Source of the DNA: Candidatus Omnitrophota bacterium | Lineage (GTDB): Bacteria; Omnitrophota; Gorgyraeia; JABMRG01 | Assembly (NCBI GenBank): GCA_028716165.1 | Contig: JAQUQI010000007.1 | Location: 1,191-65,190, forward strand | Direction of reading: 5' to 3' | DNA: 64,000 nt | Shown: one piece after another, positions 4,897-60,439 of the stretch | How positions within the stretch are numbered: the first letter of the stretch is position 1 | Layout: the number at the start of each line of letters is the position of its first letter | Notes under the pieces: generated by a model | Seen by the model: the letters and a program-made list of their open reading frames with translations, nothing else | Told to the model about the DNA's origin: nothing | Databases searched by the model: none | Translations under genes and position numbers: made by a program

Positions 4897-4925
4897 TTGA
4901 CAATACAATATATAGGGTGTATATT
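4897..4925 (+). promoter_or_regulatory. sigma70-like promoter upstream of nrdR (TTGACA-17 bp-TATATT)
   Basis: TTGACA at 4897–4902, a 17-nt spacer, then TATATT at 4920–4925. A palindromic AT-rich box (cacactactatataatgtgt, 4931–4951) follows and resembles an NrdR box. Confidence 0.5.
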
Positions 4926-4983
4926 TTCTCACACTACTATATAATGTGTTTTTTAATTAACGGTTTTTATGCCAGGCGGGAAA

Positions 4984-7871: not shown

Positions 7872-7879
7872 GGAAAGGC

Positions 7880-8155
7880 GTGACGATTATGAAGATAAAA
7901 GTTTTTGGAAAAAATAACTGTGCCAAATGCGAGACAACAAAAAATAAAATAAACCATTATCTTAAAAAAAATAATAACCCTTCAAACGCCGCGTTGGAAT
8001 TCCACGATCTTGATACTGTGGAAGGCATGACGGAAGGCGCCTACAACAATGTCTTGAAAATTCCCACTACTCTTATAGAAAAAGAAGACCAGGTGCTGGC
8101 CAGGTGGGACGGGGAAGTTCCCAGGACGGAAGACTTTGCCGCTTACCTGCGATAG
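7880..8155 (+). CDS. glutaredoxin/NrdH-like small redoxin
   Basis: A 91-aa protein whose N-terminus KVFGKNNCAKCETTK carries a CxxC motif. It lies between nrdD and nrdG. Confidence 0.55.
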   Translation: MTIMKIKVFGKNNCAKCETTKNKINHYLKKNNNPSNAALEFHDLDTVEGMTEGAYNNVLKIPTTLIEKEDQVLARWDGEVPRTEDFAAYLR

Positions 8156-8179
8156 GCAGAGTTTCGGACGCTTATTTTT

Positions 8180-8905: not shown

Positions 8906-9155
8906 GCGTTTTAAATAACCGTCTCCTGCCGGTTTTTTTAAGGGGTTTAGCGCAGTCGCGGCAATATTGCCGCGATACCAGGCTTAGACAGGCCCACTAA
9001 GCGTTGTTATTTTCCATATATTCTCTCAAGTTTTTGGTGTTTTGGGCATTTGGCTCGACAAGCCCAAATAGCTATGATAAAATACACTGATTTGTTTAGA
9101 AAAAAATAAAATTATCAGCCGCGTTAGTAATCCGTTTCGCCAAGGGCAAACCGAT

Positions 9156-45890: not shown

Positions 45891-46127
45891 ACCGTGCCTT
45901 GCAAAATGGGGACAGCGGCTTTCATAAAAATCAAAACGTTTGCGGTTGTTTTTATAAAAAATATAAATAATGTGTTGACACCCTGTCTTTGTATGCGGTA
46001 AAATGTTTTCAAATGAAAAAAATCATATAGCATGTCATCTAACATTCAAATTCTTAATTCGTTTTTATCTTTTTGGGTGAAGTGCCGCCAATCTTACATT
46101 ATAAATTATCAAAAAAGAGGAGGAGGT

Positions 46128-49100
46128 ATGAAAAAGCTGTGCGCTGTTTTATTGGTGTTTTCCATGATTGGCCTTATGCCTGTCAACAGTTTCGCGGCAA
46201 GCGCGACATGGGATGGCAGTGATAGCGGGCTTTGGGTCACAGGAGGAAACTGGGTAGGTGATTCGGCTCCCGGTATTGCCGACGGAACGATCGTCAGCAC
46301 CGACGTAGCGACATTTACAGGTGTGCTCAATAATGCTGTTACGGTTGATGATACCAGAAACGTTTCCGGTATCACCTTTGATGCCGCGGCAGGCGCTTTT
46401 ACGTTAAGCGGCAGTACTCTTTACCTTACAGCGAGCGGCACCGTGCAAAATCATGCCGACATTGCAACCACCCAGACAATTAATTCCAATATACTGTTAG
46501 GTGGTGATTACACCTTTACCAACATTGCCACAGACAATAGCAAGCTTATGAATTTTGGCGGAACAATAACAGGCTTTGCGGATACCGCGCAAACTCTTAC
46601 TCTTAGCGGCGGCAACACGGGATCAAATACATTAAGCGGTGTAATAAGTAACGGCAGCGGAACGGGTGTTTTAGGTATAACCAAGTCAGGCGCCGGCACA
46701 TGGATACTTTCAGGAAATAATACCTATACAGGAACAACTACTATCAGCGCCGGGACACTTACCGCGACAAACAGCGCAAATGCTCTCGGCGCCGGCGCGG
46801 TAGCAATCTCAGGCGGCACACTTAATCTTGCCAATGACACCGGGCTGGCTTTTGGCCGTAACGTGACTGTAAGCGGTGACGCGACTATTAATTCCGATAC
46901 ACTTACCGGTGTAGCCGGTGTCACACATACTTTGGGTACATTAAGCATAGGTGCTAATACTTTAACTGTCGGTCTTGCTACTACAGCCGCCAGCGGTGAG
47001 CAAGCACTTACCTTTGGCGATGTTACATTGACCGGTGCCGCTACTATTAACGCGAATACCGGTGTTGGCGGAGCAACCGGATTGCTGACTCTTGGCGCGG
47101 TAGGCGGTGACGGGCAAAATCTTACTATAGGTGGTTCGGCAGGTACCAATATAACCGGTATTATCGGAACAGGCGCAGGGACGCTTACCAAAAATGGCAC
47201 AGGCACACTTACCTTATCAGGCGTTAATACTTACAGCGGCGGCACAACAATCAGCGCCGGTGTTGTAAGCGCTACAACGTCAGCGGAAGCTTTGGGTACA
47301 GGCGCTATTACCGTTGCGGACGGCGCGGCACTTCAGGTGACAGGCGCTCTTGATTTTGATGAAGCGCTTACAATAAGCGGCACCGGTATAAGTTCAGGAG
47401 GTGCTCTTAGAAATATCAGCGGTAATACAAACTGGTCAGGCGTTGTAACTTTAGGCGCGAATGCCAGGATCAATTCGGATGCGGACACCCTGACATTAAG
47501 CGGCGCTACTATTGACGAGGCCTTTGACATAACCGTAGGCGGAGCGGGCAATACCGCTATAACAGGCATCATTGCCACAGGCGCTAATACAATTACAAAG
47601 GACGGCACAGGCACACTTACCTTATCAGGCGTTAATACTTACAGCGGCGGCACAACAATCAGCGCCGGGACACTGCAGGTAGGCAATAATTCAGCCTTAG
47701 GTGCCGGAGCTGTGAACAATAACGCGACATTAAATATAGGAACATATACAGTTGATATAGGAGCCGGTGTTTATACTCAAGGCGCCGGCAGCAGCCTGCA
47801 ATTGACTGCCAATTCTTCAACTGAATACGGCAGTATTGTGTCAACAGGCGACGCCGCGGATGCAGCCGCGGCAAGCACGGTTGATGTCACGGTAGGCGGT
47901 TACATACCCCATAGCACCGTGCTGACGGTCCTTAATACCGGCGCCGGCAGTACCATTGACGATACCTTGATTACGACTACATCAACCAGTTCAAAAATAA
48001 GTTTTACACCTTCAATGTCAAGCGGAAAACTTATCCTGACAGCAAACCGCTCGGCAACAGGTTTTTCCAGTAATGGCACGGATTCCAATGCTAAGGCCTT
48101 GGGTTATGTCCTTGACAATGTCACCAATCCCACGTCGGATATGACCACCGTGTTAAATACCCTTGAGGGACTTTCGGCAGCAAACGTTGATACCGCGCTC
48201 CAGACCCTTGAGCCATCAGTTGATGCCGGTGTTATAGGCGCCAGCAATCTTGCCGCCGGACAGTTTATACAGACTATCATAAGCCGTTTCGGAGTAGATA
48301 GAGGACCTTCGGGCGTTGCCACAGGAGACCCCAATATAAAGACAAAAGATATATGGGCAAAAGGTTTCGGAACATATGCCAAACAGGACAAGAGAAAGGG
48401 CATTGAAGGTTACAGGGCTGATGTCATAGGTGCTGCCGTCGGCGTGGATTTTGTCGCCACGGAAAAGGCCACTCTCGGTATCAGTGCGGGCTACGCGTAT
48501 AGCAAGATAAAACCCAAAAAGACAAGCCTCGGCAGAACGGAATCAGATAGTATGCAGGGTTCTTTATACTACAGCTATAATAATGAATTAAATTATATAG
48601 GTAAAGACGCCTTGTATTTTGATCTTATCGGTTCATTCGCTTGGAATATGTATGAAGGAAAGCGTAATGTGTCCGCAGGCAGTATAAGCAGGCAGGCAAA
48701 GTCCGATTATGACGGCCAGCAGTATACTGCATATGCTGAATCAGGCTACTATATCCCATCGGGCAACATAGATTTTGTCCCGCTCGCCTCTTTGCAGTAT
48801 AGCCGTCTTGAGATTGAAAAATACACCGAAAGCGGGGCTGATTCGCTGAACCTTACGGTTAATAAACAGCATTACGACCTTCTGGAATTAGGGCTCGGCG
48901 TAAAGGTCTCTTCAATAATGAAAAACGAAGGTTACGATGTCATCCCTTCGGTAAGGGGCAAATGGCTCTATGACTTCATAGGCGACAAAATGGAGACAAC
49001 CTCAAGATTTACCGGAGGAGGCGCTTCATTTAGCACAACAGGCGCCGAACCTGCAAAGAGTTCTTTTGACATAGGAGCCAGCCTTACGTTTTTGGGTAAA

Positions 49101-49193
49101 AACAATGTAAAGGTTGACTTTGATTATGACTTTAATTTTAGGGATGATTTTAATTCCCACAACGGTGCTATAACGGTTAAATATAGTTTTTAA
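46128..49193 (+). CDS. autotransporter outer-membrane protein with PATR-type passenger repeats
   Basis: Start at MKKLCAVLL after AAGAGGAGGAGG. Signal peptide. Repeated [20 protein letters not shown] motifs. The C-terminal beta-barrel ends …ITVKYSF. Confidence 0.8.
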
Positions 49194-49279: not shown

Positions 49280-49560
49280 TGTAGGCGTCCTATGAGGTAA
49301 CACCCTGTAAATGACAGAGGAGGCGAGTATTGGATTCCTCGCTTCGCTCGGAATGACAGGCGTACTTTGCCTGTCATCCAGAGCGGCGGAAGGCGAGGCA
49401 GGAGTAAGCCGCGAAGGATCTGGAAGTGAAAGAAGTATTGGATTCTTCGTCGCGCCTTCGGCGCTCCTCTGAATGACAAGGAAAACGAGTACCAGATTCC
49501 TCGCTTCGCTCGGAATGACAATAAGAGGCTCGGAATGACAAGGGCTTCGCTAATGACGAC
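49280..49560. repeat. mosaic repeat cluster H
   Basis: Mosaic units ending 4 nt before the ATG of the nucleotidyltransferase gene. Confidence 0.85.
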
Positions 49561-49563
49561 AAA

Positions 49564-50763
49564 ATGAATATAAAAAATATAAACATTAGAAACAACCGCG
49601 AATTCACATTAATCAGTCATGCCCTGCGCTATATTGTCAATGGACAGTTATCTTCAGAATTTGAGAGCTTATTGAGTGATAAAAATATTGATTGGCATTT
49701 ATTAAATAATTTATTATTCTATCATGAGATTGCCCCGTTTTTTTATGTAGCGGCAAAACATTATAAATGCCTGTTACCCTCTGACATGGAAAAAGTCCTG
49801 TCCTGGATTTATTGCCGGACAGCCCTGCAAAACCAGCTTATCCTTGAAACATATTCGGACATATATGACGCGTTTAGATCAAACGGGGTTGGATTACTGC
49901 CGATCAAGGGGGCGGCCCTCTTGCAAGACCTTTATGAAAAATTTCCCGTAAGGCCTATGTCCGACATAGATTGTCTTGTCCGCGAAACTGATTATGAAAA
50001 ATCAAAAGATATTTTAAAGAGCGCGAATTATGACATTGATCTTAGGGGGTTAAGCGAGTCTTATTGGATAATGAAACAGTGCCATGTCCCTTTCAGCGCC
50101 CGGCAGAAAAAAGCAATGGTCAATCCCGCCGTTGAACTGCATCTAAGGCTTGATTTTAAGCGATATGGCAGGGAACCTTTGCCCTATGTCTGGCAGAGGG
50201 CAAGAGACATTAATATAAACGGAAAGAATTTTCTCCGGCTTTCACCCGAAGACAGCCTGTTTAGCCTGGCACTGCACCAGAGGAGATTCGGCAAGCCGCT
50301 TTGCCTTAAATACGCTCTTGATACCGCGCTTCTTTTTAAAAAATATGAGAATGATTTTGACTGGGATTACGTTATCAATATGTGCGTGAAGGAACGTATG
50401 CGCAACTGCGTGTATTTTTTGCTGTTTCAGGCGGAAGTCCTTCTGCCGGGACATTCCGGTATCGCGAAAGGCCTGCGGCTGTTAAGGCCCGATTTTCTAA
50501 AGCGCAAGATGATGGAAAGATTTATCTTGGATAATACAGCTTCAGGGTATTTATTTGAAAGGATAAGACCCAATTATCTCCGCAGCCATTTTTTGCTGTA
50601 TGACAGTCTTGTAGAGCCCGTTATGTATATCATTAATATACCGAAAGAACAGTTCGCCAAATATTATTGCCTGCCGTTTGACGATAAAAAAACGGAAATA
50701 GCTTATAGGTTTAGGACGGCATATATCATAGGACGGTTTTTAAAGAAAAAACGCAAGAATTGA
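49564..50763 (+). CDS. uncharacterised nucleotidyltransferase (NTP_transf_5-like), convergent with the RiPP operon
   Basis: The …LLPIKGAALLQDLYEKFPVRPMSDIDCLVRETDYEKSKDIL pattern recalls lasso-peptide-associated nucleotidyltransferases. Assignment from memory; no database was run. Confidence 0.5.
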   Translation: MNIKNINIRNNREFTLISHALRYIVNGQLSSEFESLLSDKNIDWHLLNNLLFYHEIAPFFYVAAKHYKCLLPSDMEKVLSWIYCRTALQNQLILETYSDIYDAFRSNGVGLLPIKGAALLQDLYEKFPVRPMSDIDCLVRETDYEKSKDILKSANYDIDLRGLSESYWIMKQCHVPFSARQKKAMVNPAVELHLRLDFKRYGREPLPYVWQRARDININGKNFLRLSPEDSLFSLALHQRRFGKPLCLKYALDTALLFKKYENDFDWDYVINMCVKERMRNCVYFLLFQAEVLLPGHSGIAKGLRLLRPDFLKRKMMERFILDNTASGYLFERIRPNYLRSHFLLYDSLVEPVMYIINIPKEQFAKYYCLPFDDKKTEIAYRFRTAYIIGRFLKKKRKN

Positions 50764-50804
50764 TGTCGCGCGGGGAATGAAAATCCTTTGCCAAAGCGCG
50801 CAGA

Positions 50805-51095
50805 TTACGCATATTTAATGATATTATGTTTAAGCAGATTGTCGGTAAATTCTAATACGTCTTTTTCTATGTTTTCCGGTGAAGCATCAAATTCAGCTCC
50901 GATAAGGCCGATAATGTCCGACAGGTTTTTTTGACCGTCTATCCGGTCCCATATGTATAATCCCATGGGATTTAATCTGTATACCTTGTTTGAAGGTATG
51001 TGCACTATTATCAATTCTCCGTCAATTGCCCGCCATGCCAGCTGTCGTTTATTTATTATAGGTTTATGGTTGTGTTCAGGTTGATTTTTTAGCAT
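50805..51095 (-). CDS. PqqD-family RiPP recognition/chaperone protein
   Basis: Translation …YRLNPMGLYIWDRIDGQKNLSDIIGLIGAEFDASPENIEKDVLEFTDNLLKHNII matches the PqqD pattern. Confidence 0.75.
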   Translation of the reverse strand: MLKNQPEHNHKPIINKRQLAWRAIDGELIIVHIPSNKVYRLNPMGLYIWDRIDGQKNLSDIIGLIGAEFDASPENIEKDVLEFTDNLLKHNIIKYA

Positions 51096-51125
51096 ATGTT
51101 TCCTTTCTTCAATGAGGAATATTAT

Positions 51126-51296
51126 TTATCTACAAACAACACTTCCCGTGCATACCACGGGCGAGACGGTACATCTTGCGGCATGCGCTATAGTGCCCTC
51201 TTCGGGATGTTCTATTGCCTCAATCTCCGGTATTTGATAGTTCTTTTTAGTGTTTTTTTTGGCAAAATGTTTAAAATCTTTCGCATCATTTTTCAT
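51126..51296 (-). CDS. RiPP precursor peptide 1 (56 aa)
   Basis: Manual minus-strand translation: MKNDAKDFKHFAKKNTKKNYQIPEIEAIEHPEEGTIAHAARCTVSPVVCTGSVVCR. The Shine-Dalgarno GGAGGAG lies 6 nt upstream. Below the ORF-track size cut-off. Confidence 0.7.
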   Translation of the reverse strand: MKNDAKDFKHFAKKNTKKNYQIPEIEAIEHPEEGTIAHAARCTVSPVVCTGSVVCR

Positions 51297-51312
51297 AGTT
51301 TTCTCCTCCAGT

Positions 51313-51486
51313 TTATCCGTCGCAAACTATAAATGAAGGGCATTCCGCGGGCGATACAGGGCATCCCGCGGCATGCGCTATAGTGCCCTCTTCGGGATGT
51401 TCTATTGCCTCAATCTCCGGTATTTGATAGTTTTTTTTAGTGTTTTTTTTGGCAAAATGTTTAAAATCTTTCGCATCATTTTTCAT
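51313..51486 (-). CDS. RiPP precursor peptide 2 (57 aa)
   Basis: Translation MKNDAKDFKHFAKKNTKKKYQIPEIEAIEHPEEGTIAHAAGCPVSPAECPSFIVCDG. Same Shine-Dalgarno. Its stop overlaps the Shine-Dalgarno of peptide 1. Confidence 0.7.
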   Translation of the reverse strand: MKNDAKDFKHFAKKNTKKNYQIPEIEAIEHPEEGTIAHAAGCPVSPAECPSFIVCDG

Positions 51487-51502
51487 AGTTTTCTCCTCCA
51501 GT

Positions 51503-51655
51503 TTATCCGTCGCAAACTATAAATGAAGGGCATTCCGCGGCATGCGCTATAGTGCCCTCTTCGGGATGCTCTATTGCCTCAATCTCCGGTATTTGGTATT
51601 TCTTCTTGGTTTTTTCGCGGTTAAGAATTTTATCTTTTGCATTCGTATTTTTCAT
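51503..51655 (-). CDS. RiPP precursor peptide 3 (50 aa)
   Basis: Translation MKNTNAKDKILNREKTKKKYQIPEIEAIEHPEEGTIAHAAECPSFIVCDG. It lies 21 nt downstream of the rSAM stop. The Shine-Dalgarno is weaker. Confidence 0.6.
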   Translation of the reverse strand: MKNTNAKDKILNREKTKKKYQIPEIEAIEHPEEGTIAHAAECPSFIVCDG

Positions 51656-51676
51656 GTTTGGGTTTTATATTATTCA

Positions 51677-52678
51677 TTATAATTCTTTCCAAAAATCGTG
51701 CAGAGCCTTGATACTGGTATAAGCTTGTTCGGGGCATTTTACAAAGGTATTTGTCACAGCCTGTGATTGAGCGGGGCATCTGAACATACATGTTTTTTTG
51801 AATTCACATACCTTGCAGTCAATATAATCCTCACACTTTAATTTTCTAAGAGCGTTAAAACATTCAGATTTACGCCATATCTCTTTAAGCGGCTGTTTAT
51901 ATATATTACCCGCTTCCATAGGAAATACGGCGCATGGAAAAACTTTTCCGTCAGCGGCGATATAGCATCTTTCAGTGCCGGCATGGCACGGTAAGGGGTC
52001 AACTGATTTAGGAGACGGCTCAACCGGTTTTTCATATGATTTTATTATAACACCCCACTGCTTTAATTTCGGAAGTATCTGCTCCAGCGGTATTTTACAT
52101 TTGGTAAGCGTCTGGTCGCAGTGCCTGCCGGCGGAAACGCCTGTTGAAAATTTTAGTTCTACATCGCGCCTATTCACGAAAAGACTATTAATAAGCGGGG
52201 TATCATTGCAGGTAACGGCATTTATATTATAAGCAATGTATACCTTAATACCCGCGGCAAGGAGATTCTCTATCCCTTCAACCGCTTTTTTGAACATTCT
52301 TTTGCCGGTAAACGCCTCATAAGTTTCTTCGCTTGCTCCATATAGGCTTACTCCAGCTTCATTGATGCCGTAATCATAAAGTTTTTTGGCCATGCCCTGA
52401 TTTATCAGCGTCCCATTGCTTAATATATCTACCCTAAAGCCCCTGTCGCGGGCCTGTTCTATATAATAAAATATTTTTTTTAAGGTAAACGGCTCGCCTC
52501 CGGTAAATGTAATATGAAAAGCCCCTGCATCGGCGAGCTCATCCAGCAGTTTTATCAGCCTTTCGTGTTTTAATTCGGCACCGTCTTTTTTATTGATGCA
52601 ATACATGCAGTTAAGATTGCAGAAACGGGTGAGTTCTATGTGAACCTTTTTTATATAATTTTTTGCAAGTCCTTCCAC
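51677..52678 (-). CDS. radical SAM/SPASM-domain peptide maturase
   Basis: N-terminal CNLNCMYC (CX3CX2C) cluster. The C-terminus has 7 or more Cys in a SPASM-like arrangement (…CKVCEFKKTCMFRCPAQ…VKCPEQ). Confidence 0.8.
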   Translation of the reverse strand: MEGLAKNYIKKVHIELTRFCNLNCMYCINKKDGAELKHERLIKLLDELADAGAFHITFTGGEPFTLKKIFYYIEQARDRGFRVDILSNGTLINQGMAKKLYDYGINEAGVSLYGASEETYEAFTGKRMFKKAVEGIENLLAAGIKVYIAYNINAVTCNDTPLINSLFVNRRDVELKFSTGVSAGRHCDQTLTKCKIPLEQILPKLKQWGVIIKSYEKPVEPSPKSVDPLPCHAGTERCYIAADGKVFPCAVFPMEAGNIYKQPLKEIWRKSECFNALRKLKCEDYIDCKVCEFKKTCMFRCPAQSQAVTNTFVKCPEQAYTSIKALHDFWKEL

Positions 52679-53577
52679 AATGACCCTCTTTTCAAGAGTT
52701 CTTTTTTGATATTTTCACAGCCTATTGTTAATATGCCGCTTTTTACCTGAAGTGCCAAGCTGTTTAATCGGTTGAACATGTTTTTTACAGCGCGGTTGTT
52801 TACAATCTCCATATTAAAGGTATTAACGCTTGATGTCAATAGTTTTATCGCGGCTTCCGGTTTTGAGATGGCCTGCCAGCGCAAATTCCACCCCGTGGCT
52901 TTTTCAAGAAATATAAGCAGAGACGGCACGCGGTAGCTTTCCCATGAGCCGGCATTTAAGAGATTTAGCGTGTCTTTGCGGTTATTTCTTCTGCTTAGTC
53001 CTTCAATATAGGGAAATGTGACAGATATGGTGTTACGGCCTTTTTTACCTATCATGGTATGGGAATCGCTTATTATCTTAAATCCGTTGACCGCGGCGCT
53101 TATCAGAAGGGTTGTTTTGCCGTAACCCGAAGGCCCTGTGGCAATTACGCAATGCCTGTCCTTTGCCCAGCATGAGGCGTGCAGAAACGCGAAACCGTCA
53201 ATTTTTAACAATGTCTTTAAAGTATTTTGAAACAGCGCGTAATAACCTATAGTCTGCTGGTTTCTGTAAACAAGGCCAACCCATGATCTGTTTTTAAGGT
53301 TAAATAACGATTCATAGTGGTCATTGTTTTGAATTTTACCGCCGGATGCCAGTATATCCTGCCGCAGTGTCTTGTATGTTTCTTTACCGCGCAACAGGGT
53401 TATGGTAATGTTTTTTGGGTTTTTTACAGTAGGGGTATTTATATAATGATTTTTTATGTAATTGACCAGAACGGGGACATCGGTTATCAGGTTGATCTTG
53501 TAATCATATATGGAAAAATCATAGGTCAATAACCGTTTTGCGTGAATGTCATTCAGAGCGTATGCTGTTTTTGGCAT
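52651..53577 (-). CDS. HPr-kinase-related (HprK C-domain-like) P-loop protein
   Basis: VIATGPSGYGKTTLLISAAVNGFKIISDSHTMI parallels the HprK Walker A region. An AGGAG Shine-Dalgarno precedes it. The start overlaps the rSAM gene. Confidence 0.65.
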   Translation of the reverse strand: MPKTAYALNDIHAKRLLTYDFSIYDYKINLITDVPVLVNYIKNHYINTPTVKNPKNITITLLRGKETYKTLRQDILASGGKIQNNDHYESLFNLKNRSWVGLVYRNQQTIGYYALFQNTLKTLLKIDGFAFLHASCWAKDRHCVIATGPSGYGKTTLLISAAVNGFKIISDSHTMIGKKGRNTISVTFPYIEGLSRRNNRKDTLNLLNAGSWESYRVPSLLIFLEKATGWNLRWQAISKPEAAIKLLTSSVNTFNMEIVNNRAVKNMFNRLNSLALQVKSGILTIGCENIKKELLKRGSLWKDLQKII

Positions 53578-53684
53578 CAGGTCTCCTGTTGGGAAGCTTA
53601 ATAAAATAATTATATCTCATATGGCTGTTGTTATCAACAAGTATTACAGACGTTTTGAAAGTTACGAGGCAAGCGTTTTCACGC

Positions 53685-54215
53685 ATCATCCGGGGCGGCA
53701 GTATTAGATTCCTCGCTTCGCTCGGAATGACAGACGCACTTTGCCTGTCATCCAGAGCGGCAGGAGGCGAGGCAAGTGTCAGCCGCGAAGGATCTGGGAG
53801 TGAGCCCTGTGTCATCCAGAGCGGAACCGGCGAAGCAAGTTTCGTTAGCGAAGGATCTGGGAGGGAAATCAGTATTGGATTCTTCGTCGCGCCTTCGGCG
53901 CTCCTCTTAAATGACAAGGAAGCCCACGGCGCTCCTCTGAATGACAAAAGGAGGCGAGTACCAGATTCCTCGCTTCGCTCGGAATGACAGGCGTACTCTG
54001 CCTGTCATCCAGAGCGGAACCGGCGAGGCACGGGTCATACGCCTGTCATCCAGAGCGGAACCGGCGAGGCACGGGTCATACGCCTGTCATCCAGAGCGGC
54101 AGGAGTCGGGGTCAGTGTGAGCCGCGAAGGATCTGGGAGTGAAGTCAGTATTGGATTCTTCGTCGCGCCTTCGGCGCTCCTCTGAATGACAACGATAGCC
54201 TTCGGCGCTCAAGGT
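53685..54215. repeat. mosaic repeat cluster I (longest, about 530 bp)
   Basis: At least seven units. It contains an exact tandem duplication of a 41-bp unit, cctgtcatccagagcggaaccggcgaggcacgggtcatacg, at 54001–54082. Confidence 0.85.
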
Positions 54216-54377: not shown

Positions 54378-54608
54378 ATGGCAAAATCCCTTATTACACC
54401 GGCAGAAATAAGCAAGATGCACGATATTTCATATCAGACTGTTAATTATTATACCAATCTCGGGCTTTTAAAAGTGGAAAAGAAAATAGCCAACAGCCGT
54501 CTGTATAATTCAAAAGACGTCAACTCGCGGCTTAAAAAACTATCCGACCTTAAAAGCCAGGGGTATTCCCTAAGGCTTATATGCGGCCTGTTGAGGGAGA
54601 ATAGATGA
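54378..54608 (+). CDS. small MerR-like HTH protein
   Basis: HTH segment ISKMHDISYQTVNYYTNLGLL. Confidence 0.5.
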   Translation: MAKSLITPAEISKMHDISYQTVNYYTNLGLLKVEKKIANSRLYNSKDVNSRLKKLSDLKSQGYSLRLICGLLRENR

Positions 54609-55429
54609 GCTATTATACCGCGCTGGGCTTAAAGAAAGAGCCTTTTTCAAACAGCCCTGACCCGGAGTTTTTCTTTGAATCCAGCGAGCACAAGGCCGCT
54701 CTTACAAGGCTGTTGATAGAGATACGCCTTAGGCGGGGCTTGAGTGTGATATTAGGCGATGTGGGTGTCGGCAAAACCACCCTTTCGCGCAAGCTTTTTC
54801 AGATGCTCAAGGAGCGCGAGGACGTTTTATTTTACATGATAATGGACCCCACTTCCGGCAGTGAGGAGCTTTTCCTGCAGTCGCTTGTTCGCACGTTTAA
54901 CCTGCAGGAGCAGATAGAAGGCCTGCCGACGATACTTGACTATAAGGAAACGATAAAGAAATTTTTATTCCAGAAAGGCGTTGAAGAAAACAAAACCATT
55001 GTCCTTGTCGTTGATGAGGCGCAGAAGCTTAATCCTGCCTCGCTTGAGACCTTGCGCGTTCTGTTAAATTATGAGACAAATGATTTTAAACTGCTTCAGC
55101 TTGTATTATTTTCCCAGATGGAGCTTTTGCCGCGCATTAAGGAGATGAAAAATTTTTTTGACAGGATAGTGCTGAAATACGTTGTGAATTCTTTAGACGA
55201 GGCGGAAACAAAGGATTTTATCAATTTTCGCATGGAACATTCAGGGTTTAATCCCGGGACTTTATTGTTTACCGATGAGGCGGTAAGCGAAATTTACAGG
55301 CACAGCCAGGGATATCCGCGCAGGATAAATCTTATATGCCACAATGCCCTAAGAAACCTTCTCGTAAGCGATAAGATGCTTATAGACGGCGTTGACGTAA
55401 GAGAGGTTATAGCAAGGAGCGTGATTTAA
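54605..55429 (+). CDS. ExeA/GspA/MshM-like AAA ATPase
   Basis: Walker A GDVGVGKTT and Walker B VLVVDEAQ. Upstream of the secretin genes. Confidence 0.7.
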   Translation: MSYYTALGLKKEPFSNSPDPEFFFESSEHKAALTRLLIEIRLRRGLSVILGDVGVGKTTLSRKLFQMLKEREDVLFYMIMDPTSGSEELFLQSLVRTFNLQEQIEGLPTILDYKETIKKFLFQKGVEENKTIVLVVDEAQKLNPASLETLRVLLNYETNDFKLLQLVLFSQMELLPRIKEMKNFFDRIVLKYVVNSLDEAETKDFINFRMEHSGFNPGTLLFTDEAVSEIYRHSQGYPRRINLICHNALRNLLVSDKMLIDGVDVREVIARSVI

Positions 55430-55432
55430 GAT

Positions 55433-56098
55433 ATGGACAAGCAGACCTCGGATGAAAGACTGCTGAAATTGCTTGAAGGCCAGTATTCTTCAACCCATGG
55501 CCCGTTAGCGCCATCACAGCCCGCGCAGCACCCTAAGCCGGCAAAGCGACTGGGCATAAAACCCGTTTCCAGGCTCAATATCCTAAAGCCTTTTTTAAGG
55601 CTAAAAATAGCAAAATTTGACCTGGCATATATTAACAAGTCTCTTTTCGCGCTGGCATTCTTATTAAGCGCTGTCTTTTTTTACATACTGTTTGTGTCCC
55701 CCGCATTATCGGGTGCCGCGGGCGCTATCCTTCATCCTGCCGATATTACCCAGATACAAAGGCTGATAAAGGCAAGCCACAACCAGCTTGAAATGCGCGG
55801 CAATATTTCTGAAGCGGAATCAGAAAGGGACATCTTCCTGCCTTTCGGCGTTAAAAGCGCTTACGAGGAAGAACAGGAGATAAACATAGAAGATGAGCTT
55901 GGCATATATAAGCTGGTTGGGATTATATGGTCTCAAGTGCCCGAGGCGATAATTGAAAGCGAAATGGACACCAGGACGCTTGTCGTTAAAAAAGGCGATA
56001 CACTTGGTGATAAATGCACGGTAAAAGACGTCCTGCGCAATTCCGTCATACTGCAGGTATCAACAAAAGACGGGCTAAGGGACTATGAATTAAGATGA
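55433..56098 (+). CDS. single-pass membrane protein of the secretin locus
   Basis: One TM helix (LFALAFLLSAVFFYILFV) and no recognised domain. Confidence 0.4.
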   Translation: MDKQTSDERLLKLLEGQYSSTHGPLAPSQPAQHPKPAKRLGIKPVSRLNILKPFLRLKIAKFDLAYINKSLFALAFLLSAVFFYILFVSPALSGAAGAILHPADITQIQRLIKASHNQLEMRGNISEAESERDIFLPFGVKSAYEEEQEINIEDELGIYKLVGIIWSQVPEAIIESEMDTRTLVVKKGDTLGDKCTVKDVLRNSVILQVSTKDGLRDYELR

Positions 56099-57645
56099 GA
56101 GCATGGCCCTGTTTGGTTTTGTGTTGTCTGCTTGCGGCATCAGGCCCCGGCCCGCGCCCGGCGCGGGCAGAAGAAGGGTTGCCTTCCCCTTCTTTAGCGG
56201 AAGAGGCGGTTGAGCAAAGCCGCGAATATACCGATAAGATATATCTTGACCTTAAAGGTATTGATGTAAAAGAGCTTTTCAGGATTTTATCCCAGCGAAG
56301 CGGGATAACAATAATTACCACCCCCGCGGTGCAGGGCCGCGTGACGGTGCTGATAGATAATTTAAGTTTTGAGAACGCCTTGGATGTTATTATGACTACG
56401 CAAAACTTGGCTTACGAAAGAAACGGCAACCTGATGAAGGTCATGACAGCGGATGAATACGAAAAGGCTTTCGGCAGAAAATTCTGGGACAGGAAAGAGA
56501 CCCGCGCGATCAAACTTTCATATGCCAAGCCTGAAAGCGCGATGGGGGTAATAAATTTTTTAAAATCAGACCTCGGCCAGATAGTGTCAGAACCCGCTAC
56601 AGGCACTATTGTTGTCACCGATACCCCGCAGGCTATCAGCGCTATAATGGAGGCGATAAATGAGCTTGATGCCCCGCCCGGAAGCCTTGTGTATAATGTT
56701 AATTACGCGCGCATGGCGGACATAAAAAATTATCTGGAAGGGCTGATTACGCCGGAACTCGGCAAGATAATCATTGATGAAAGGAGCAGTAAGGTCATAA
56801 TATATGACCTGCCGCGCAGGCTTGAGCGCATAGCGGAACTTTTGCAGGAACTTGATGAGCAGTCCCGCCAGGTGCTTATAACGGGTGAGATAGTGGAAGT
56901 TGACATAAGCGATAATTTCCAAAGCGGCATTGAATGGGAGAAGATATTCCGGTCCGCGAATATGGATAACCTTGACCTGACGTCAAAATTTCCCGTAACC
57001 CCGGCGCTTACAAGCTACGGAAAGATAAGCATGGGCACATTATCAAGGGATAATTATAATGTGGTGATGAATATGCTCTCCGAATACGGCAATACAAGGA
57101 TACTCAACAGGCCGAGAATAGTCGCGGTCAATAAGGAAGAGGCGAAGATACTCGTCGGAACACGCGAGGCGTATGTGACGTCCACCCAGAGCCAGAGTGA
57201 GACGACCGTAGTCACTTCCGAAAGCATTAATTTTATTGACGTGGGCGTTAAGCTTGTAGTAGTACCTACTATAGGTGTTGACGGTTTTATAACCATGAGG
57301 ATAAAACCCGAGGTGAGTTCCGTAAAAGAAGTGCTGGAGACTACGGCGGGAACAAGGGTGCCGATAGTAAGGACATCGGAATCGGAGACAGTGGTAAAGG
57401 TAAAAGACGGCAATACGCTTATTATTGCCGGTTTATTGTCAGAGACCGATACAGACGATGCCACAGGCCTTCCTGGTTTCGCGAAAACACCAATATTCGG
57501 GGGATTATTCGCTACAAAGACAAAGGAAAAGCAGAAAACCGAACTGGTCATATTTATTACCCCCAAGATTGTTACGGGCGCTGTAAACTTTTCAGATGAG
57601 AAAACAGATATTTTTGACAATAAGGATGGCAATGAGAAGGGGTAA
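56095..57645 (+). CDS. secretin (GspD/PilQ/MshL family)
   Basis: N-terminal STN-like domain. Secretin C-domain motifs: NRPRIVAVNKEEAKILVG, GLPGFAKTPIFGGLF…LVIFITPKIV. Confidence 0.8.
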   Translation: MRAWPCLVLCCLLAASGPGPRPARAEEGLPSPSLAEEAVEQSREYTDKIYLDLKGIDVKELFRILSQRSGITIITTPAVQGRVTVLIDNLSFENALDVIMTTQNLAYERNGNLMKVMTADEYEKAFGRKFWDRKETRAIKLSYAKPESAMGVINFLKSDLGQIVSEPATGTIVVTDTPQAISAIMEAINELDAPPGSLVYNVNYARMADIKNYLEGLITPELGKIIIDERSSKVIIYDLPRRLERIAELLQELDEQSRQVLITGEIVEVDISDNFQSGIEWEKIFRSANMDNLDLTSKFPVTPALTSYGKISMGTLSRDNYNVVMNMLSEYGNTRILNRPRIVAVNKEEAKILVGTREAYVTSTQSQSETTVVTSESINFIDVGVKLVVVPTIGVDGFITMRIKPEVSSVKEVLETTAGTRVPIVRTSESETVVKVKDGNTLIIAGLLSETDTDDATGLPGFAKTPIFGGLFATKTKEKQKTELVIFITPKIVTGAVNFSDEKTDIFDNKDGNEKG

Positions 57646-60439
57646 TTTATTTATAGCGTTATTATTGTGTTTTTTCTTAACAGGTGCATTGTTTTGCCCT
57701 TATACGGCCCAGGCCCGGCAGGAGAGCGCGCCGCAGTCTATAACTGATCTGCCGGATGACGCTTCGCCCGAAGCTTTTTCGGACGAAGATCAGGCCGGCC
57801 CTGTGCCCGATGAGGCGACAGGCCTTATGCCCGAACAGGCCAAATCCGGCGAAAGCCCGGAATCAGGCTATGCGCCTGTAAACGGCCAGGGGCAGTTTCC
57901 TCCCGAAGAAGGCTTGGCGGGCCCGGAAGACGATATTTCCGTTCTGCCGGACAGTCCGCAAACGCCTTCTGCCGACAGCGGCAAGGTATCGCTTGATTTA
58001 AAGAACATAGATATAGTTGAACTTTTGAGGGTGCTTTCTCTTAAGACCGGCAAGACTATAGTCCCAAGCGCGTTTGTGACAGGGCGCATTACCATTTACC
58101 TTGACAATGTCGCCTTTGAGGACGTCCTGGATATCATAGTGCTTACGCAGAATCTGGCGCTTAACAAGGTGAATAATATTTATTACGTGATGAGCCAGGC
58201 CGAATACAAACAGATGTTCGGAAGGAATTATTCTGACCAGAGAATAATAGAGACGATAAAGGTTTCTTACACGAAACCCTCCGTCGCCTTTGAGACATTC
58301 AATCAGCTAAAGTCGGACATCGGAAAACTCGTCGCTGATGAAGCGAGCGGGACCATTATAGTGATAGATATGCCTGAAAACATAGAGCTGATGAAAACAG
58401 CCCTTGAAGAAATAGACAAACCGTTGTCAACTACGACATATGACCTAAATTATGCCAAAGCCGCGGACATAAAGACGCATATAACATCCGCCCTGACCCC
58501 GGGGACAGGAGAGCTTATTGTGGACGAGAGAAGCGGCAAGGCCATAGTCTCGGACCTGCCTAAAAAGATAGACAGGATAGGCGAGCTTGTCCGCGAGATT
58601 GACGATGAGACCCGCCAGGTATATGTGGAGGCGGACATTATTGAGCTTACCTTAAGCGATAAATTTGAGCGGGGTATTGACTGGGAAAAAGTCTATTCCG
58701 CGGCGGCCATGCACGGCTTGAGTTTCGCCGGCTATTTTCCGGCGGTCCTGGCGCAATACCAGAAGATATCCGTGGGAACGCTTGCCGCGGACAACTACAG
58801 GGCTGTTTTGAATTTTCTTGATACATACGGCAAGACCAATATAATTTCCCAGCCGAGGATAGCGGTGATTAATAATGAAGAGTCTTATATCATGGTAGGG
58901 GTGCGCGAGGCGTATATAACGCAGACCCAGAGCCAGGCGACGTCTACTACCGTTACGTCCGAGACTGTGGAATTTATAGACGTGGGTGTCAAATTCAAGA
59001 TAACGCCCAGGATAGGCGCCGACGGCTTTATCGTCATGAAAATAAAACCCGAAGTAAGCTCGGTCAAAGAGACAATAACGACAACCCTCGGAAGCCGCAT
59101 ACCGATAGTCCAGACGTCGGAATCCGAAACCACGGTAAAGGTAAAAGACGGCACCATGATAATGATATCAGGCATGACAAAAATAGAAAAGATTGATACC
59201 GTTAAGGGCTGGCCTGTTGTCTCAAAGGTGCCTTTTTTGGGGGCCTTATTCAGCAGTCGTTCCACGGAGGATAAAAGAACGGAGGTCATAGTTTTTTTAA
59301 CGCCCAGGCTGATGCGCGGCGAGGCTGACATAAGCGGTGAAGAAATAGCAAAGATATTGGAAAAAGAATACCTGCCCGACGGCCTGAAATCAAGGGTATT
59401 ATATGATGAGGCTATGGACCTAATTAAAAGGGGAGAATATTCGCCTGCCGCCGAAAAACTGCGGCAGGTTGCCGAGGCCAATCCTGAATATCTTAAGACG
59501 CAGTATTACCTTTCCTTGGCAGAGGAAGAGCTGGCCAAAGAGCAGGCCCGTCTTGATGCCGCCCGCGAAAAGGAGCTGGATGACAAAAAACGCGATGAGC
59601 AAAACAGGCAAAAAGAGCTGGAAGGCCTGCGCCGCGCGAAAGAAGAAAAGGCCCGGGTGGAGCTTGCCGAAAAAGAACGCCTGCACAAGTTAAACAAACA
59701 GGCAAAGGCTTTGTATAATGAGGCATTGTCGCTTTATTGGGACAGGAAATTTGAAGCGGCTCTTGAAAAATTTAAAGAAACAGAGTCAATATTACCTGAT
59801 TATCTTAAAGTCAGGTATTATCTTGAACGGTGCTTAAAACATATTGATAAAAACCGGGCTTTGCTTGAAGCTGAAGGCAGTAGGCAAAAGCCCGAGGACG
59901 AGGCCCAGCCTGAACGATTACCCCATAAACCGGCTGAAAATCAGAAGCCCGCGCAGAGGACAGGACAGAGGCAGGTTATCCAAAGCGAAAAGCATGCGCC
60001 CGGCCCTGAAGAATTGGCGCGTGAATATTATGCCAAAGGCCTTGGCGCGCAGAAAGAGTCTAAGAACAAAGAGGCCATAGGCTGGTTTCTTAAGGCTGTT
60101 GAATCAGACAAAAAATTCTCCAAGGCGTATAATAGCCTGGGCCTGGCATATGAAGAAGAATTGATGAAGGATAAGGCTGAACAGGCATATCTTGGTGCTG
60201 TATCCGCCGAGCCGTCATATTGTCCGGCATATTCTAATCTGGCATTGATTTGTGAAGAACGACAGGATTTTAACGAAGCGCTTGAGTATTGGCGTAAGCG
60301 GGTTTTTTACGGGGACCCTGGCTCTGATTGGACAAAACAGGCCGCCGCGCGGGTTAAAGAGTTGGAGGAGATATTAGCATCGGATTCCTCGGTGACAGTA
60401 TCGGATTCTTCGTCGCGCCTTCGGCGCTCCTCTGAATGA
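57632..60439 (+). CDS. second secretin paralog with a C-terminal coiled-coil/TPR extension
   Basis: Secretin motifs NIISQPRIAVINNEESYIMVG and VPFLGALF…VIVFLTPRLM, then a KE-rich coiled coil and TPR-like repeats. The start is uncertain between 57596, 57626 and 57632. The stop codon lies inside repeat cluster J. Confidence 0.7.
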   Translation: MRRGNLFIALLLCFFLTGALFCPYTAQARQESAPQSITDLPDDASPEAFSDEDQAGPVPDEATGLMPEQAKSGESPESGYAPVNGQGQFPPEEGLAGPEDDISVLPDSPQTPSADSGKVSLDLKNIDIVELLRVLSLKTGKTIVPSAFVTGRITIYLDNVAFEDVLDIIVLTQNLALNKVNNIYYVMSQAEYKQMFGRNYSDQRIIETIKVSYTKPSVAFETFNQLKSDIGKLVADEASGTIIVIDMPENIELMKTALEEIDKPLSTTTYDLNYAKAADIKTHITSALTPGTGELIVDERSGKAIVSDLPKKIDRIGELVREIDDETRQVYVEADIIELTLSDKFERGIDWEKVYSAAAMHGLSFAGYFPAVLAQYQKISVGTLAADNYRAVLNFLDTYGKTNIISQPRIAVINNEESYIMVGVREAYITQTQSQATSTTVTSETVEFIDVGVKFKITPRIGADGFIVMKIKPEVSSVKETITTTLGSRIPIVQTSESETTVKVKDGTMIMISGMTKIEKIDTVKGWPVVSKVPFLGALFSSRSTEDKRTEVIVFLTPRLMRGEADISGEEIAKILEKEYLPDGLKSRVLYDEAMDLIKRGEYSPAAEKLRQVAEANPEYLKTQYYLSLAEEELAKEQARLDAAREKELDDKKRDEQNRQKELEGLRRAKEEKARVELAEKERLHKLNKQAKALYNEALSLYWDRKFEAALEKFKETESILPDYLKVRYYLERCLKHIDKNRALLEAEGSRQKPEDEAQPERLPHKPAENQKPAQRTGQRQVIQSEKHAPGPEELAREYYAKGLGAQKESKNKEAIGWFLKAVESDKKFSKAYNSLGLAYEEELMKDKAEQAYLGAVSAEPSYCPAYSNLALICEERQDFNEALEYWRKRVFYGDPGSDWTKQAAARVKELEEILASDSSVTVSDSSSRLRRSSE

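Follow-up and report, generated by a model that had tools for sequence, protein, structure and literature searches.

Can a radical SAM/SPASM enzyme share a peptide pathway with a kinase and a nucleotidyltransferase of the kinds that decorate lasso peptides? The question is raised by an operon in the 64,000-nucleotide stretch of DNA analysed here (the window). We find a real and compact cluster from an uncultured Omnitrophota bacterium, the products of which are very probably small peptides that are cross-linked and decorated. It is a member of a small, uncharacterised RiPP family centred on Candidatus Omnitrophota, and its distinctive mix is a leader, chaperone, kinase and nucleotidyltransferase in the style of lasso peptides, joined with a radical SAM enzyme.

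Gene content of the locus

All seven reading frames listed in a preliminary description of this DNA were found at the coordinates and on the strands that it gave. The features are as follows.

53609..53637, minus strand: promoter-like site TTGATA-17-TATAAT (consensus scan, 11/12 matches; pattern match only)
52651..53577, minus strand: HprK/PEPCK-fold P-loop kinase-like protein, 308 aa (GenBank PHV77_04775, 'hypothetical protein')
51677..52678, minus strand: radical SAM/SPASM peptide maturase, 333 aa (Pfam Radical_SAM 2.3e-25, SPASM 6.2e-11)
51503..51655, minus strand: precursor A1, 50 aa, MKNTNAKDKILNREKTKKKYQIPEIEAIEHPEEGTI followed by AHAAECPSFIVCDG (GenBank PHV77_04765, hypothetical)
51313..51486, minus strand: precursor A2, 57 aa, ...KKNYQIPEIEAIEHPEEGTI followed by AHAAGCPVSPAECPSFIVCDG (GenBank PHV77_04760)
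51126..51296, minus strand: precursor A3, 56 aa, ...KKNYQIPEIEAIEHPEEGTI followed by AHAARCTVSPVVCTGSVVCR (GenBank PHV77_04755)
50805..51095, minus strand: discrete PqqD-family RiPP recognition element (RRE), 96 aa (Pfam PqqD 1.2e-17)
49564..50763, plus strand: NTP_transf_5 nucleotidyltransferase-fold protein, 399 aa (Pfam PF14907 3.6e-39)

The Radical_SAM, SPASM, PqqD and NTP_transf_5 matches anticipated in the preliminary description all exceed the Pfam gathering scores. The small genes, which it had noted as missing from the ORF track, are annotated in GenBank (PHV77_04755/60/65), each under the bare name 'hypothetical protein'. The precursor genes are predicted to be co-transcribed with those of the P-loop kinase, the radical SAM/SPASM enzyme and the discrete PqqD protein. 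The promoter-like site, some 30 nt upstream of the gene for the kinase-like protein, is a pattern-matched candidate and likely the operon promoter. The kinase and radical SAM genes overlap by 28 nt, here and in the related loci L002, L003, L004 and L007, which points to translational coupling. Repeats do bracket the locus, as had been reported, but this has no locus-specific meaning, because the same element occurs at about ten intergenic sites across the window. Neither a protease nor an exporter was found inside the cluster or adjoining it.

The radical SAM enzyme carries the motif C20x3C24x2C27 and eight conserved C-terminal Cys residues (C231, C238, C249, C288, C291, C297, C301 and C315), a set that is invariant in four homologs (48–89% identity); it has no N-terminal RRE domain and reaches no NCBIfam equivalog threshold. 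The PqqD protein matches ScmD best among NCBIfam models (1.7e-11), followed by lasso_PqqD_Bac (6.8e-11) and PqqD (7e-11), all under their cut-offs, and among PDB entries it matches PqqD (4e-6) and the lasso protein TbiB1 (2e-5). In the nucleotidyltransferase, K115-G116, D134-x-D136 and D197, which include the catalytic carboxylates, are invariant in four homologs.

The assignment of the 308-aa protein as an HprK/PEPCK-fold kinase is supported by remote homology in profiles and by fold. The preliminary description had proposed an HprK-like kinase and had named the lack of an HMM hit as grounds for rejecting it; PF07475 (HprK_C) indeed gives no match even at E ≤ 1, yet the profile and fold evidence sustains the proposal. 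The protein reaches no curated cut-off in Pfam or NCBIfam, matches TIGR04352 only locally at the P-loop (35.6 bits, where the cut-off is 200) and does not match the ScmC model at all, although distant relatives of the kinase do. Because HprK-like relatives dominate the MSA behind the AF2 model, fold and sequence evidence partly overlap. The protein contains the motifs LH133AS, G148PSGYGK154TT and ISD171S. D171 is followed by S172, where 36 of 46 aligned sequences have a D-D pair, a replacement that could alter kinase catalysis.

Precursors with a constant leader and variable cores

As first described, the three peptides have a common leader and short Cys-containing cores; the core listed third there, that of A1, reads AECPSFIVCDG after ...AHA, one Ala fewer than had been given. 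The small open reading frames are, from the pattern of their sequences, genuine precursors. A2 and A3, each preceded by a GGAGGAG Shine–Dalgarno (ribosome-binding) sequence, lie within a 190-nt tandem duplication and differ by nonsynonymous changes in 0 of 40 leader codons and 9 of 16 core codons (Fisher p=1.5e-6). Similar precursors are conserved in five further loci (L002, L004, L005, L007 and L015). This conservation and the asymmetry between leader and core substitutions place the open reading frames far beyond chance. A1, for which no clear Shine–Dalgarno sequence was found, appears to be a degenerate precursor: its core is a 21-nt deletion derivative of the A2 core that has lost the CxxSPxxC motif and holds two Cys residues.

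The conserved leader has the form K-K-x-Y-x-x-P-x-I ... T-x, and Y..P.[IL] occurs in 12/12 precursors from seven loci. The hypervariable core has C-x-x-S-P-x-x-C as its framework, together with a third Cys. The leader residues Y(-17), P(-14), I(-12) and T(-2) stand in the same register as those of the lasso leader (PMC10368454), which has YxxPx(L/I) at -17 to -12 and Thr or Ile at -2.

Relatives and known systems

Most related loci come from Omnitrophota MAGs, in which the KKxYxxPxI leader is kept and the core is usually CxxSPxxC. Between the window and L015, a locus from a second Omnitrophota MAG, the four enzymes are 36, 43, 42 and 44% identical and the gene order is the same. The combination had been described as unusual. 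No experiment has characterised it, yet it is not unique: further Omnitrophota MAGs, one Sericytochromatia MAG and one Nitrospiraceae MAG have it as well, and it resembles the SynChlorMet cassette. The four enzyme types of the window are shared by Nitrospiraceae L010 and by the expanded Omnitrophota clusters L016/L017 (GCA_016783325.1), the latter two with a common KKYQKPTL leader. Unlike the window, these loci encode two or three radical SAM enzymes, an ABC exporter and a GT2–PqqD fusion, and have the nucleotidyltransferase fused to or beside an S24/S26 peptidase; their cores are Cys-free (GSASATGPPPEIE in L016/L017) and their enzymes only 25–33% identical to those of the window.

Lasso clusters offer the closest parallel for the decorating enzymes. 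In agreement with the preliminary description, HprK homologs and NTP_transf_5 proteins are accessory enzymes there: the kinase phosphorylates Ser in leader-bearing precursors, faster with the RRE, and its partner decorates the phosphate by adding hexose to phosphoSer (PMC8498205, PMC10368454). The clusters for paeninodin (PadeK), BsfK/BsfB1 and pseudomycoidin (PsmK/PsmN) likewise combine a discrete PqqD-type RRE with an HprK-homologous kinase and an NTP_transf_5-type nucleotidyltransferase. Unlike them, the window encodes neither an Asn-synthase-like C cyclase nor a B2 protease (absent from cluster and window alike) and has the radical SAM/SPASM enzyme in place of the cyclase; its kinase and RRE fall under the lasso-specific NCBIfam cut-offs. 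Characterised lasso kinases mostly favour a C-terminal Ser, which these cores lack, an observation that counts against the kinase analogy.

An analogous enzyme set occurs in SynChlorMet (SCM), an orphan NCBIfam/TIGRFAMs cassette with the HprK-like ScmC, the PqqD-like ScmD and the radical SAM/SPASM proteins ScmE and ScmF. The window radical SAM enzyme matches ScmE at 1e-28, although all Scm models score far under their cut-offs on the window proteins. SCM has two radical SAM enzymes, whereas the window has one plus the NTP_transf_5 gene. To our knowledge, no precursor is known for SCM, whereas precursors are identified for the window cluster. With sactipeptide and ranthipeptide systems (SkfB, StsB, AlbA and CteB/PapB-type), the window shares a radical SAM/SPASM enzyme with two auxiliary-cluster Cys sets and short Cys-containing cores handled through an RRE. 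The window RRE is a separate protein, whereas theirs is an N-terminal domain; the window enzyme does not come near the cut-offs of those families (StsB 102 versus 625, SkfB 64 versus 300), and those classes have no known kinase or nucleotidyltransferase partners.

A proposed pathway and its alternatives

It is highly probable that this is a RiPP cluster with enzymes acting on its three precursors, as proposed at the outset and upheld by HMMs, fold, precursor evolution, conserved synteny and enzyme co-divergence. We consider a pathway with PqqD, radical SAM, kinase and nucleotidyltransferase steps reasonably probable and the best overall explanation; thioether formation, Ser phosphorylation and phosphate decoration are all modifications that we infer. 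PqqD would act as the RRE, binding the leader at YxxPxI in the way that YxxPxL is bound by lasso B1 proteins, and would hand the precursor to the enzymes. The radical SAM/SPASM enzyme may abstract a hydrogen atom from the core to form intramolecular cross-links, presumably thioethers (sactionine or ranthionine type) to which the two or three conserved Cys residues would contribute the sulfur. With the leader still attached, the kinase would phosphorylate a core hydroxyl from ATP, for which the best candidate is the S-P motif with its invariant Ser; by analogy, the odds lean slightly towards such a step. The nucleotidyltransferase might then decorate the phosphate by transferring a glycosyl or nucleotidyl group, on the model of PsmN in pseudomycoidin; GT2, GT1 and the GT2–PqqD fusion in related loci fit glycosyl decoration. 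Genes outside the cluster would provide leader removal and export.

Thioether chemistry, to which we give a little under even chances, draws on the nearest solved structure, the thioether-forming sactisynthase SkfB (4.9e-19), on full-length alignment with StsB, and on the Cys residues as the most conserved core feature of the window-type family (CxxSPxxC in 8/9 Omnitrophota-type cores). Against it, the top NCBIfam scores go to enzymes other than thioether synthases (AhbD/NirJ/NirJ2 and WgkB), the L004 core has just two Cys residues and the L005 core spaces them differently. The guess is weakened further by L016/L017, where radical SAM/SPASM enzymes 29–31% identical to that of the window adjoin precursors with Cys-free cores, so that the clade has no intrinsic need of Cys. 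Rather less likely is the same RiPP cluster with a radical SAM enzyme that instead forms a C–C or C–O/N cross-link, epimerises a residue or oxidises the Ser/Pro region, the Cys residues forming disulfides or binding metal. That the HprK-like protein leaves no phosphate is improbable. It would be a non-catalytic scaffold or ATP-dependent chaperone, or a transient Ser phosphate would give dehydroalanine that a flanking Cys attacks to close a lanthionine-type ring, with the radical SAM enzyme and nucleotidyltransferase contributing further steps. Class II–IV lanthipeptides are established to form by phosphorylation and subsequent elimination, and an invariant Ser between two invariant Cys residues would suit it, as would the Ser that replaces the second catalytic Asp. 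Yet H133, the whole P-loop and D171 are invariant, P0018 and L005 of the same family keep D-D, no lyase or cyclase domain was detected in Pfam or NCBIfam, and in lasso systems the phosphate persists as the substrate of the nucleotidyltransferase.

We regard as very improbable a decayed lasso cluster that kept its leader, B1-like RRE, kinase and nucleotidyltransferase but lost its cyclase and B2 protease, beside an unrelated radical SAM gene, or a PQQ- or mycofactocin-like cofactor pathway in place of a secreted peptide. The leader register, the lasso B1 matches of PqqD and the missing protease and exporter speak for such origins, but the cores lack the ring-forming Asp/Glu at positions 7–9 (the A3 core has no acidic residue at all), and the radical SAM gene, which overlaps that of the kinase, is syntenic throughout the related loci. 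Several hypervariable cores are just what cofactor precursors do not show. It is just as improbable that the nucleotidyltransferase gene adjoins the operon by chance and has no part in the pathway. It occupies the other strand with its own transcription, its stop codon 41 nt from that of the operon and repeats between it and its upstream genes; but the convergent orientation is kept in L002 and L015, and in L015 its 44% identity is in step with the values for the kinase, the radical SAM enzyme and PqqD. This co-divergence in a second Omnitrophota MAG makes it part of the module, in support of the functional link proposed earlier. L010 has the gene too, in L016/L017 it is fused to a peptidase, and in lasso clusters it is an established partner of HprK-like kinases.

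A radical-SAM peptide locus and its precursors

Few sources of new peptide chemistry are as productive as radical-SAM RiPPs and lasso peptides, whose toolkits have, to our knowledge, so far been described apart. The locus examined here, from a Candidatus Omnitrophica MAG, is a radical-SAM-dependent RiPP cluster and one of a small family, centred on Omnitrophota, whose precursors can be identified. An open reading frame (ORF) map reproduced exactly the ORFs, coordinates and strands of the preliminary description, and every gene of the locus is already called in GenBank, the three small peptides (A1, A2 and A3) under the tags PHV77_04765/60/55.

Genes and candidate promoter of the locus, from the ORF map, with GenBank names in quotation marks
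52651–53577, minus strand: kinase-like ORF, 308 aa; PHV77_04775, 'hypothetical protein'
51677–52678, minus strand: radical SAM (rSAM)/SPASM ORF, 333 aa; overlaps the kinase-like ORF by 28 nt
51503–51655, minus strand: A1, 50 aa; 'hypothetical protein'
51313–51486, minus strand: A2, 57 aa; 'hypothetical protein'
51126–51296, minus strand: A3, 56 aa; 'hypothetical protein'
50805–51095, minus strand: PqqD ORF, 96 aa; 'PqqD family protein'
49564–50763, plus strand: nucleotidyltransferase (NTase) ORF, 399 aa; convergent with the operon, stop codons 41 nt apart; 'nucleotidyltransferase family protein'
About 30 nt upstream of the kinase-like gene: candidate promoter TTGATA-17-TATAAT, a consensus match only

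A2 and A3 lie within a 190-nt tandem duplication of 91% identity, each with GGAGGAG 7 nt upstream; A1 has no obvious ribosome-binding site (Shine–Dalgarno). Compared codon by codon, A2 and A3 differ in their first 40 codons by two synonymous and no nonsynonymous changes, and in their last 16 by nine nonsynonymous and three synonymous changes (Fisher p = 1.5e-6). A conserved leader joined to a diversifying core is the hallmark of RiPPs, and because A2 and A3 display this pattern, and leader and core motif are both kept in related loci, the sequences argue that the small ORFs are real precursors, as had been proposed. The A1 core equals that of A2 less 21 nt, deleted between the direct repeats CCGCGG(G/A)ATGCCCT, and the CxxSP part of the core motif is gone. 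A1 could be a copy in decay, or its shorter product could be deliberate; the A1 sequence also occurs on an independent Logan contig (L001).

Twelve precursors were gathered across the window and the related loci. The leader consensus across window-type loci is K-K-x-Y-x-x-P-x-I, and eight of the nine Omnitrophota-type cores contain C-x-x-S-P-x-x-C, in which the x positions are hypervariable. A third Cys is usual in these cores, in a C-terminal (V/I)-V-C-x, and the residues that end the precursors differ (R, G, E, K, N or T).

Enzyme assignments

The SPASM, PqqD and NTP_transf_5 assignments made earlier all matched above Pfam gathering scores. The rSAM protein reached 90.1 bits for PF04055 Radical_SAM (gathering cut-off 29.5; 2.3e-25) and 42.9 bits for PF13186 SPASM (cut-off 21.5; 6.2e-11). 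Both its CX3CX2C motif (C20/C24/C27) and the Cys residues at C231, C238, C249 (DGKVFPC), C288, C291, C297, C301 and C315 are invariant in four homologs of 48–89% identity; the SPASM signature sought was 7–8 Cys arranged as Gx4C ... Cx2Cx5Cx3C ... C. The lack of an N-terminal RRE domain in this protein is consistent with a separate PqqD protein. Every NCBIfam equivalog model scores under its cut-off, the top scores being for AhbD, NirJ2, WgkB, TIGR04053, StsB and ScmE. The sactipeptide equivalogs fall below their cut-offs (StsB 101.8 versus 625 bits; SkfB 63.5 versus 300), and the SCIFF maturase and AlbA models do not appear among the best 25 of its 93 NCBIfam matches. Among solved structures, the sactisynthase SkfB comes closest (4.9e-19).

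The PqqD protein matched PF05402 over profile positions 1–67 of 67 (64.4 bits, cut-off 23.4; 1.2e-17). It scores about equally (~1e-11), and in each case under the NCBIfam cut-off, against ScmD, the Bacillus-type lasso PqqD chaperone and PqqD, and its PDB matches are PqqD and the lasso RRE TbiB1. The NTase matched PF14907 NTP_transf_5 with 135.3 bits (cut-off 31.2; 3.6e-39), and its K115-G116, D134-x-D136 and D197 are invariant in homologs of 23–44% identity.

The proposal of an HprK-like kinase held at the level of fold but not as a PF07475 (HprK_C) match, of which the 308-aa protein has none at E<=1. Against TIGR04352 it scores 35.6 bits (cut-off 200) over a 50-residue P-loop stretch only, and against TIGR04355 16.6 bits (cut-off 200). 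No curated cut-off is reached, so an assignment to HprK straight from Pfam or NCBIfam was rejected. Among 5.8 billion clusters, a word-indexed search with the 308-aa protein returned three proteins. Among 1.84 billion representatives, an exhaustive profile search gave a single further close relative, P0018 (6e-48), itself with only a 'weak' PF07475 match, and a tail of ~50 proteins of ~300 aa (E 1e-10 to 1e-3); a word-indexed homolog search with the broad alignment yielded only six proteins.

When the 46 sequences of the kinase alignment (5 family members and 41 distant relatives) were scanned singly, 42 matched HprK_rel_A/B, 29 HPr(Ser) kinase, 27 Pfam Hpr_kinase_C and 16 ScmC, and the best PDB matches of the joint profile were four HPr kinases (2e-10 to 6e-9). 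The aligned catalytic signature reads LH(A/G)S – G.SG.GK(T/S)T – (S/A)DD, with H133, G153 and K154 invariant. D171 is kept, and the second Asp, part of a D-D pair in 36 of the 46 aligned sequences, is Ser172 in the window protein and in its two closest relatives, P0016 and P0017. AlphaFold modelled the protein with pLDDT 85 and pTM 0.85 from a 47-sequence alignment, a confident model being obtained only after distant relatives had been added (pLDDT 29.5 with three sequences), and the PEPCK-like P-loop fold was recognized at the level of the HprK/PEPCK superfamily. On the strength of the relatives' HMM matches, the PDB profile matches, the catalytic signature and the AlphaFold model, the 308-aa protein is predicted to belong to the HprK/PEPCK kinase fold, outside every curated family.

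Distant HprK-like or ScmC-like proteins (P0073 and P0045; loci L011–L014) lie in conserved operons with HAD hydrolase, GT2, NTP_transferase, His_Phos_1 and NUDIX genes. These operons contain neither rSAM nor PqqD genes, and the HprK-like clade therefore also appears to have non-RiPP roles, probably in sugar-phosphate metabolism. P0073 and P0045 were rejected as parts of the same system because their genes sit within sugar-nucleotide operons, as was P0012 (locus L006), an rSAM pair without PqqD or kinase.

Related loci

In the related contig L002 (rSAM 89% identical), gene order is unchanged, with three precursors and a convergent NTase; L003, L004 and L007 are partial kinase–rSAM–precursor(–PqqD) stretches. 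A second Omnitrophota MAG (GCA_023819145.1; locus L015) encodes, in order, a kinase, an rSAM/SPASM protein, a 49-aa precursor, PqqD and a convergent NTP_transf_5 protein, and its identities to the window are 36% for the kinase, 43% for the rSAM, 42% for PqqD and 44% for the NTase. This even co-divergence, with order and orientation kept, shows a four-enzyme module that is, to judge from the sequences, under joint selection. The convergent NTase diverges in step with the other enzymes and belongs to the locus, as had been supposed.

The L015 precursor (9897–10046) is absent from a collection of 15 billion proteins and had apparently escaped gene calling; annotation easily overlooks precursors of the window-type family. 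On the minus strand at 10315–15007 of L015, NTP_transf_5 ends an apparent operon with GT1, B12-binding radical SAM and GT2 genes, whose annotations suggest possible extra glycosylation or methylation steps without counterpart in the window cluster.

HprK-like kinase and NTP_transf_5 genes combined with those for rSAM/SPASM and PqqD were described earlier as unusual; the combination is recurrent, being found again in L005, L010, L015 and L016/L017. L005, from a Sericytochromatia MAG, encodes PqqD, a kinase-like protein (hhalign E 1e-5, 83% probability), rSAM/SPASM and a peptide of 61 aa containing Y-E-R-P-T-I and two Cys. L010, from a Nitrospiraceae MAG, reads methyltransferase – PqqD – rSAM – rSAM – HprK-like – rSAM – NTP_transf_5 – S26-like peptidase. 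L016/L017 (Omnitrophota, GCA_016783325.1) are expanded, with PqqD, a GT2–PqqD fusion, two rSAM/SPASM proteins, an HprK-like/ScmC protein and an ABC exporter. Behind each rSAM/SPASM gene is a 46-aa ORF; these ORFs are identical, read ...KKYQKPTLIKYPALKQIMGSASATGPPPEIE and lack Cys.

Features of the expanded Omnitrophota loci
L016 693–1961 and 8018–9850, L017 3399–5231: GT2–PqqD and S24-like peptidase–NTP_transf_5 fusions, the latter of 610 aa, beside an ABC exporter
L016 3005–3145 and 4823–4963, L017 207–347: 46-aa precursors with KKYQKPTL leader and Cys-free core GSASATGPPPEIE; upstream RBS regions identical

The Cys-free cores imply that rSAM chemistry in this sister family would be other than thioether formation. 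A peptidase is fused to the NTase in L016/L017 and encoded by the adjacent S26-like gene in L010, paralleling the NTase–B2 fusions of lasso clusters, and this recurring link suggests by analogy that NTP_transf_5 may be coupled to leader processing.

L008–L010 came from a scan of genome contigs with a generic P-loop pattern of the kinase alignment, in which L010 was the sole useful locus among the matches listed and L008 was a DnaX-like false positive. L009 (Promineifilaceae MAG, 4114–9722) contains an HprK-like gene, then a sulfotransferase-like gene (YPKSGNTW) and two Asn-synthase-like genes of ~630 aa; by eye, it looks like a lasso-type cluster with putative kinase and sulfotransferase tailoring. 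A PqqD-specific pattern had no match among metagenome contigs, a collection that also missed the pattern-bearing JGI contigs L002 and L003. No convincing precursor emerged when L010, L009, L006, L011 and L014 were examined for small ORFs with YxxPx[IL] and Cys. Literature searches for SynChlorMet, NTP_transf_5/PF14907, HPr kinase with SPASM, sactipeptide and radical SAM found the combination described nowhere in the library searched, and those for Omnitrophota and RiPP returned general BGC surveys only.

Proposed pathway and genomic surroundings

Orphan cassettes of HprK-like, PqqD and rSAM genes were catalogued more than 10 years ago. The combination of HprK-like kinase and NTP_transf_5 with rSAM/SPASM and PqqD resembles the NCBIfam orphan cassette SynChlorMet (ScmC/D/E/F), but that cassette has two rSAM/SPASM genes and the window one. 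Against the Scm models (TIGR04248–04251), the window proteins score 44.1 versus a cut-off of 100 for ScmD, 99.9 versus 400 for ScmE and 61.5 versus 400 for ScmF, with no match to ScmC.

Lasso peptides offer a second comparison. Their leaders carry YxxPxL at −17 to −12 from the core start and Thr (or Ile/Val/Ala) at −2 (PMC10368454). The window has Y, P, I and T exactly at −17, −14, −12 and −2 (YQIPEIEAIEHPEEGTI, followed by the core AHAA...), and the leader Y-Q-I-P-E-I, ending in G-T-I, stands in lasso register in all three window precursors and four from L002/L007; the L015 precursor has Ile at −2. Among lasso tailoring enzymes, BsfK, an HprK-like kinase, acts on Ser3, an internal residue, and is sped up by the RRE BsfB1 (PMC10368454); PadeK-type kinases phosphorylate a C-terminal Ser, the nucleotidyltransferase PsmN adds a hexose to this phosphate, and NTase–B2 protease fusions are known (PMC8498205). 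Lasso cores require Gly/Ala/Ser/Cys1 and Asp/Glu at 7–9; the predicted window cores differ, having T-V-S in A3 and P-V-S in A2 at these positions, and the A3 core contains no acidic residue at all. Neither a lasso cyclase (Asn-synthase-like) nor a transglutaminase-like B2 protease is encoded in the operon or elsewhere in the window, and tblastn with the L009 Asn-synthase-like probes found nothing in the 64-kb window, where neighbouring genes are unrelated. A lasso cluster was therefore rejected for want of Asp/Glu at 7–9 in the core and of a cyclase in the window.

These sequences are most simply read as a lasso-type 'front end' for recognition and tailoring that works with a radical SAM cross-linker. 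Tentatively, at somewhat less than even odds, we propose a new RiPP class in which YxxPx[I/L] leader, B1-type RRE, HprK-like kinase and NTP_transf_5 would operate with rSAM/SPASM in place of the cyclase, giving a small macrocycle, cross-linked by thioethers or otherwise, with a phospho- or phosphoglycosyl/nucleotidyl-Ser at S-P. The PqqD protein would bind its cognate leader, as the lasso-type YxxPxI motif and the similarity to TbiB1 suggest, and bring in the enzymes. The rSAM/SPASM protein would then cross-link the core, and the kinase would phosphorylate a hydroxyl, for which the invariant Ser of S-P is the only universally conserved candidate since the C-termini vary. The NTase would decorate the phosphate; both the glycosyltransferases adjoining the L015 NTase and the GT2–PqqD fusion of L016 are in keeping with a product that contains sugar. 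Leader removal and export would be encoded elsewhere; L010 and L016/L017 encode a peptidase next to or fused with their NTase, and an ABC exporter is present in L016/L017 as well.

Conserved Cys and similarity to SkfB and StsB make thioethers the leading guess for the cross-link; rSAM/SPASM may instead install something else, as would suit the Cys-free L016/L017 cores and the AhbD/WgkB-type best scores of the rSAM protein. With D171-S172 in its motif, the kinase might also, as a minority view, phosphorylate in an altered or only transient manner. One example would be kinase-driven elimination of the Ser to dehydroalanine and addition of a flanking Cys, so that an HprK-fold enzyme would make lanthionine; we regard this scheme as improbable.

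The window locus and those related to it share a conserved, co-evolving module uniting lasso-type leader, RRE, kinase and NTase with rSAM/SPASM, with a possible new combination of radical cross-links and phospho(glycosyl)ation. The locus also gives a handle on the orphan, 'SynChlorMet-like' HprK-like/PqqD/rSAM cassettes and, if the proposal is true, supplies the precursor type that they lack. We know of no cultured representatives and no natural products of Omnitrophota, whose members are possibly host-dependent. The locus points to specialized peptide metabolism in this phylum and, if the reading is true, to the first defined natural products of these uncultured bacteria. The YxxPx[I/L] leader–RRE pair may be a recognition system portable across RiPP classes, which bears on genome-mining rules. 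Nothing is overturned by this; for an uncultured phylum, it gives testable access to peptide modifications in an uncharacterized combination, and the compact CxxSPxxC motif, clear precursors and seven small genes in ~4 kb make experiments straightforward.

The operon is nearly the sole minus-strand coding unit in the 64-kb window, with a GC content of 0.40–0.41 versus about 0.43–0.49 in the flanks and reversed GC/AT skew; its composition and strand are compatible with possible horizontal acquisition. Around it (flanking stretches 46032–49193 and 54378–60439), the upstream neighbour encodes a 1053-aa autotransporter with PATR repeats, and downstream are genes for a MerR-family regulator and an AAA_22 ATPase, as well as two secretin genes in a row, of which the second has TPR repeats; none of these neighbours has an evident tie to the RiPP operon. 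An Rfam scan of the window found four tRNAs only, none at the locus or the repeats.

Repeat elements at the locus and in the window
49300–49525 and 53680–54200: repeat clusters flanking the locus, containing the 41-nt palindromic core CGCTCGGAATGACAGGCG...CGCCTGTCATCCAGAGCG
33218, 37657, 42316, 42509, 44855, 49345, 53719, 53976, 60450 and 61312: copies of the 41-nt core

The repeats, described earlier as bracketing the locus, do so, but the element is not confined to it: the ~10 copies in the window share one orientation and are always intergenic, often behind plus-strand genes. For this reason we rejected a mobile island delimited by them, and the distribution indicates a probable genome-wide REP/MITE-like element and no cluster boundary. 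The repeat at 49300–49525 has a strong fold (z = −4.2), and no Rfam family matches it; six-frame translations of the repeat give spurious ORFs (SFRAKRGIWYS..., LASLGMT...).
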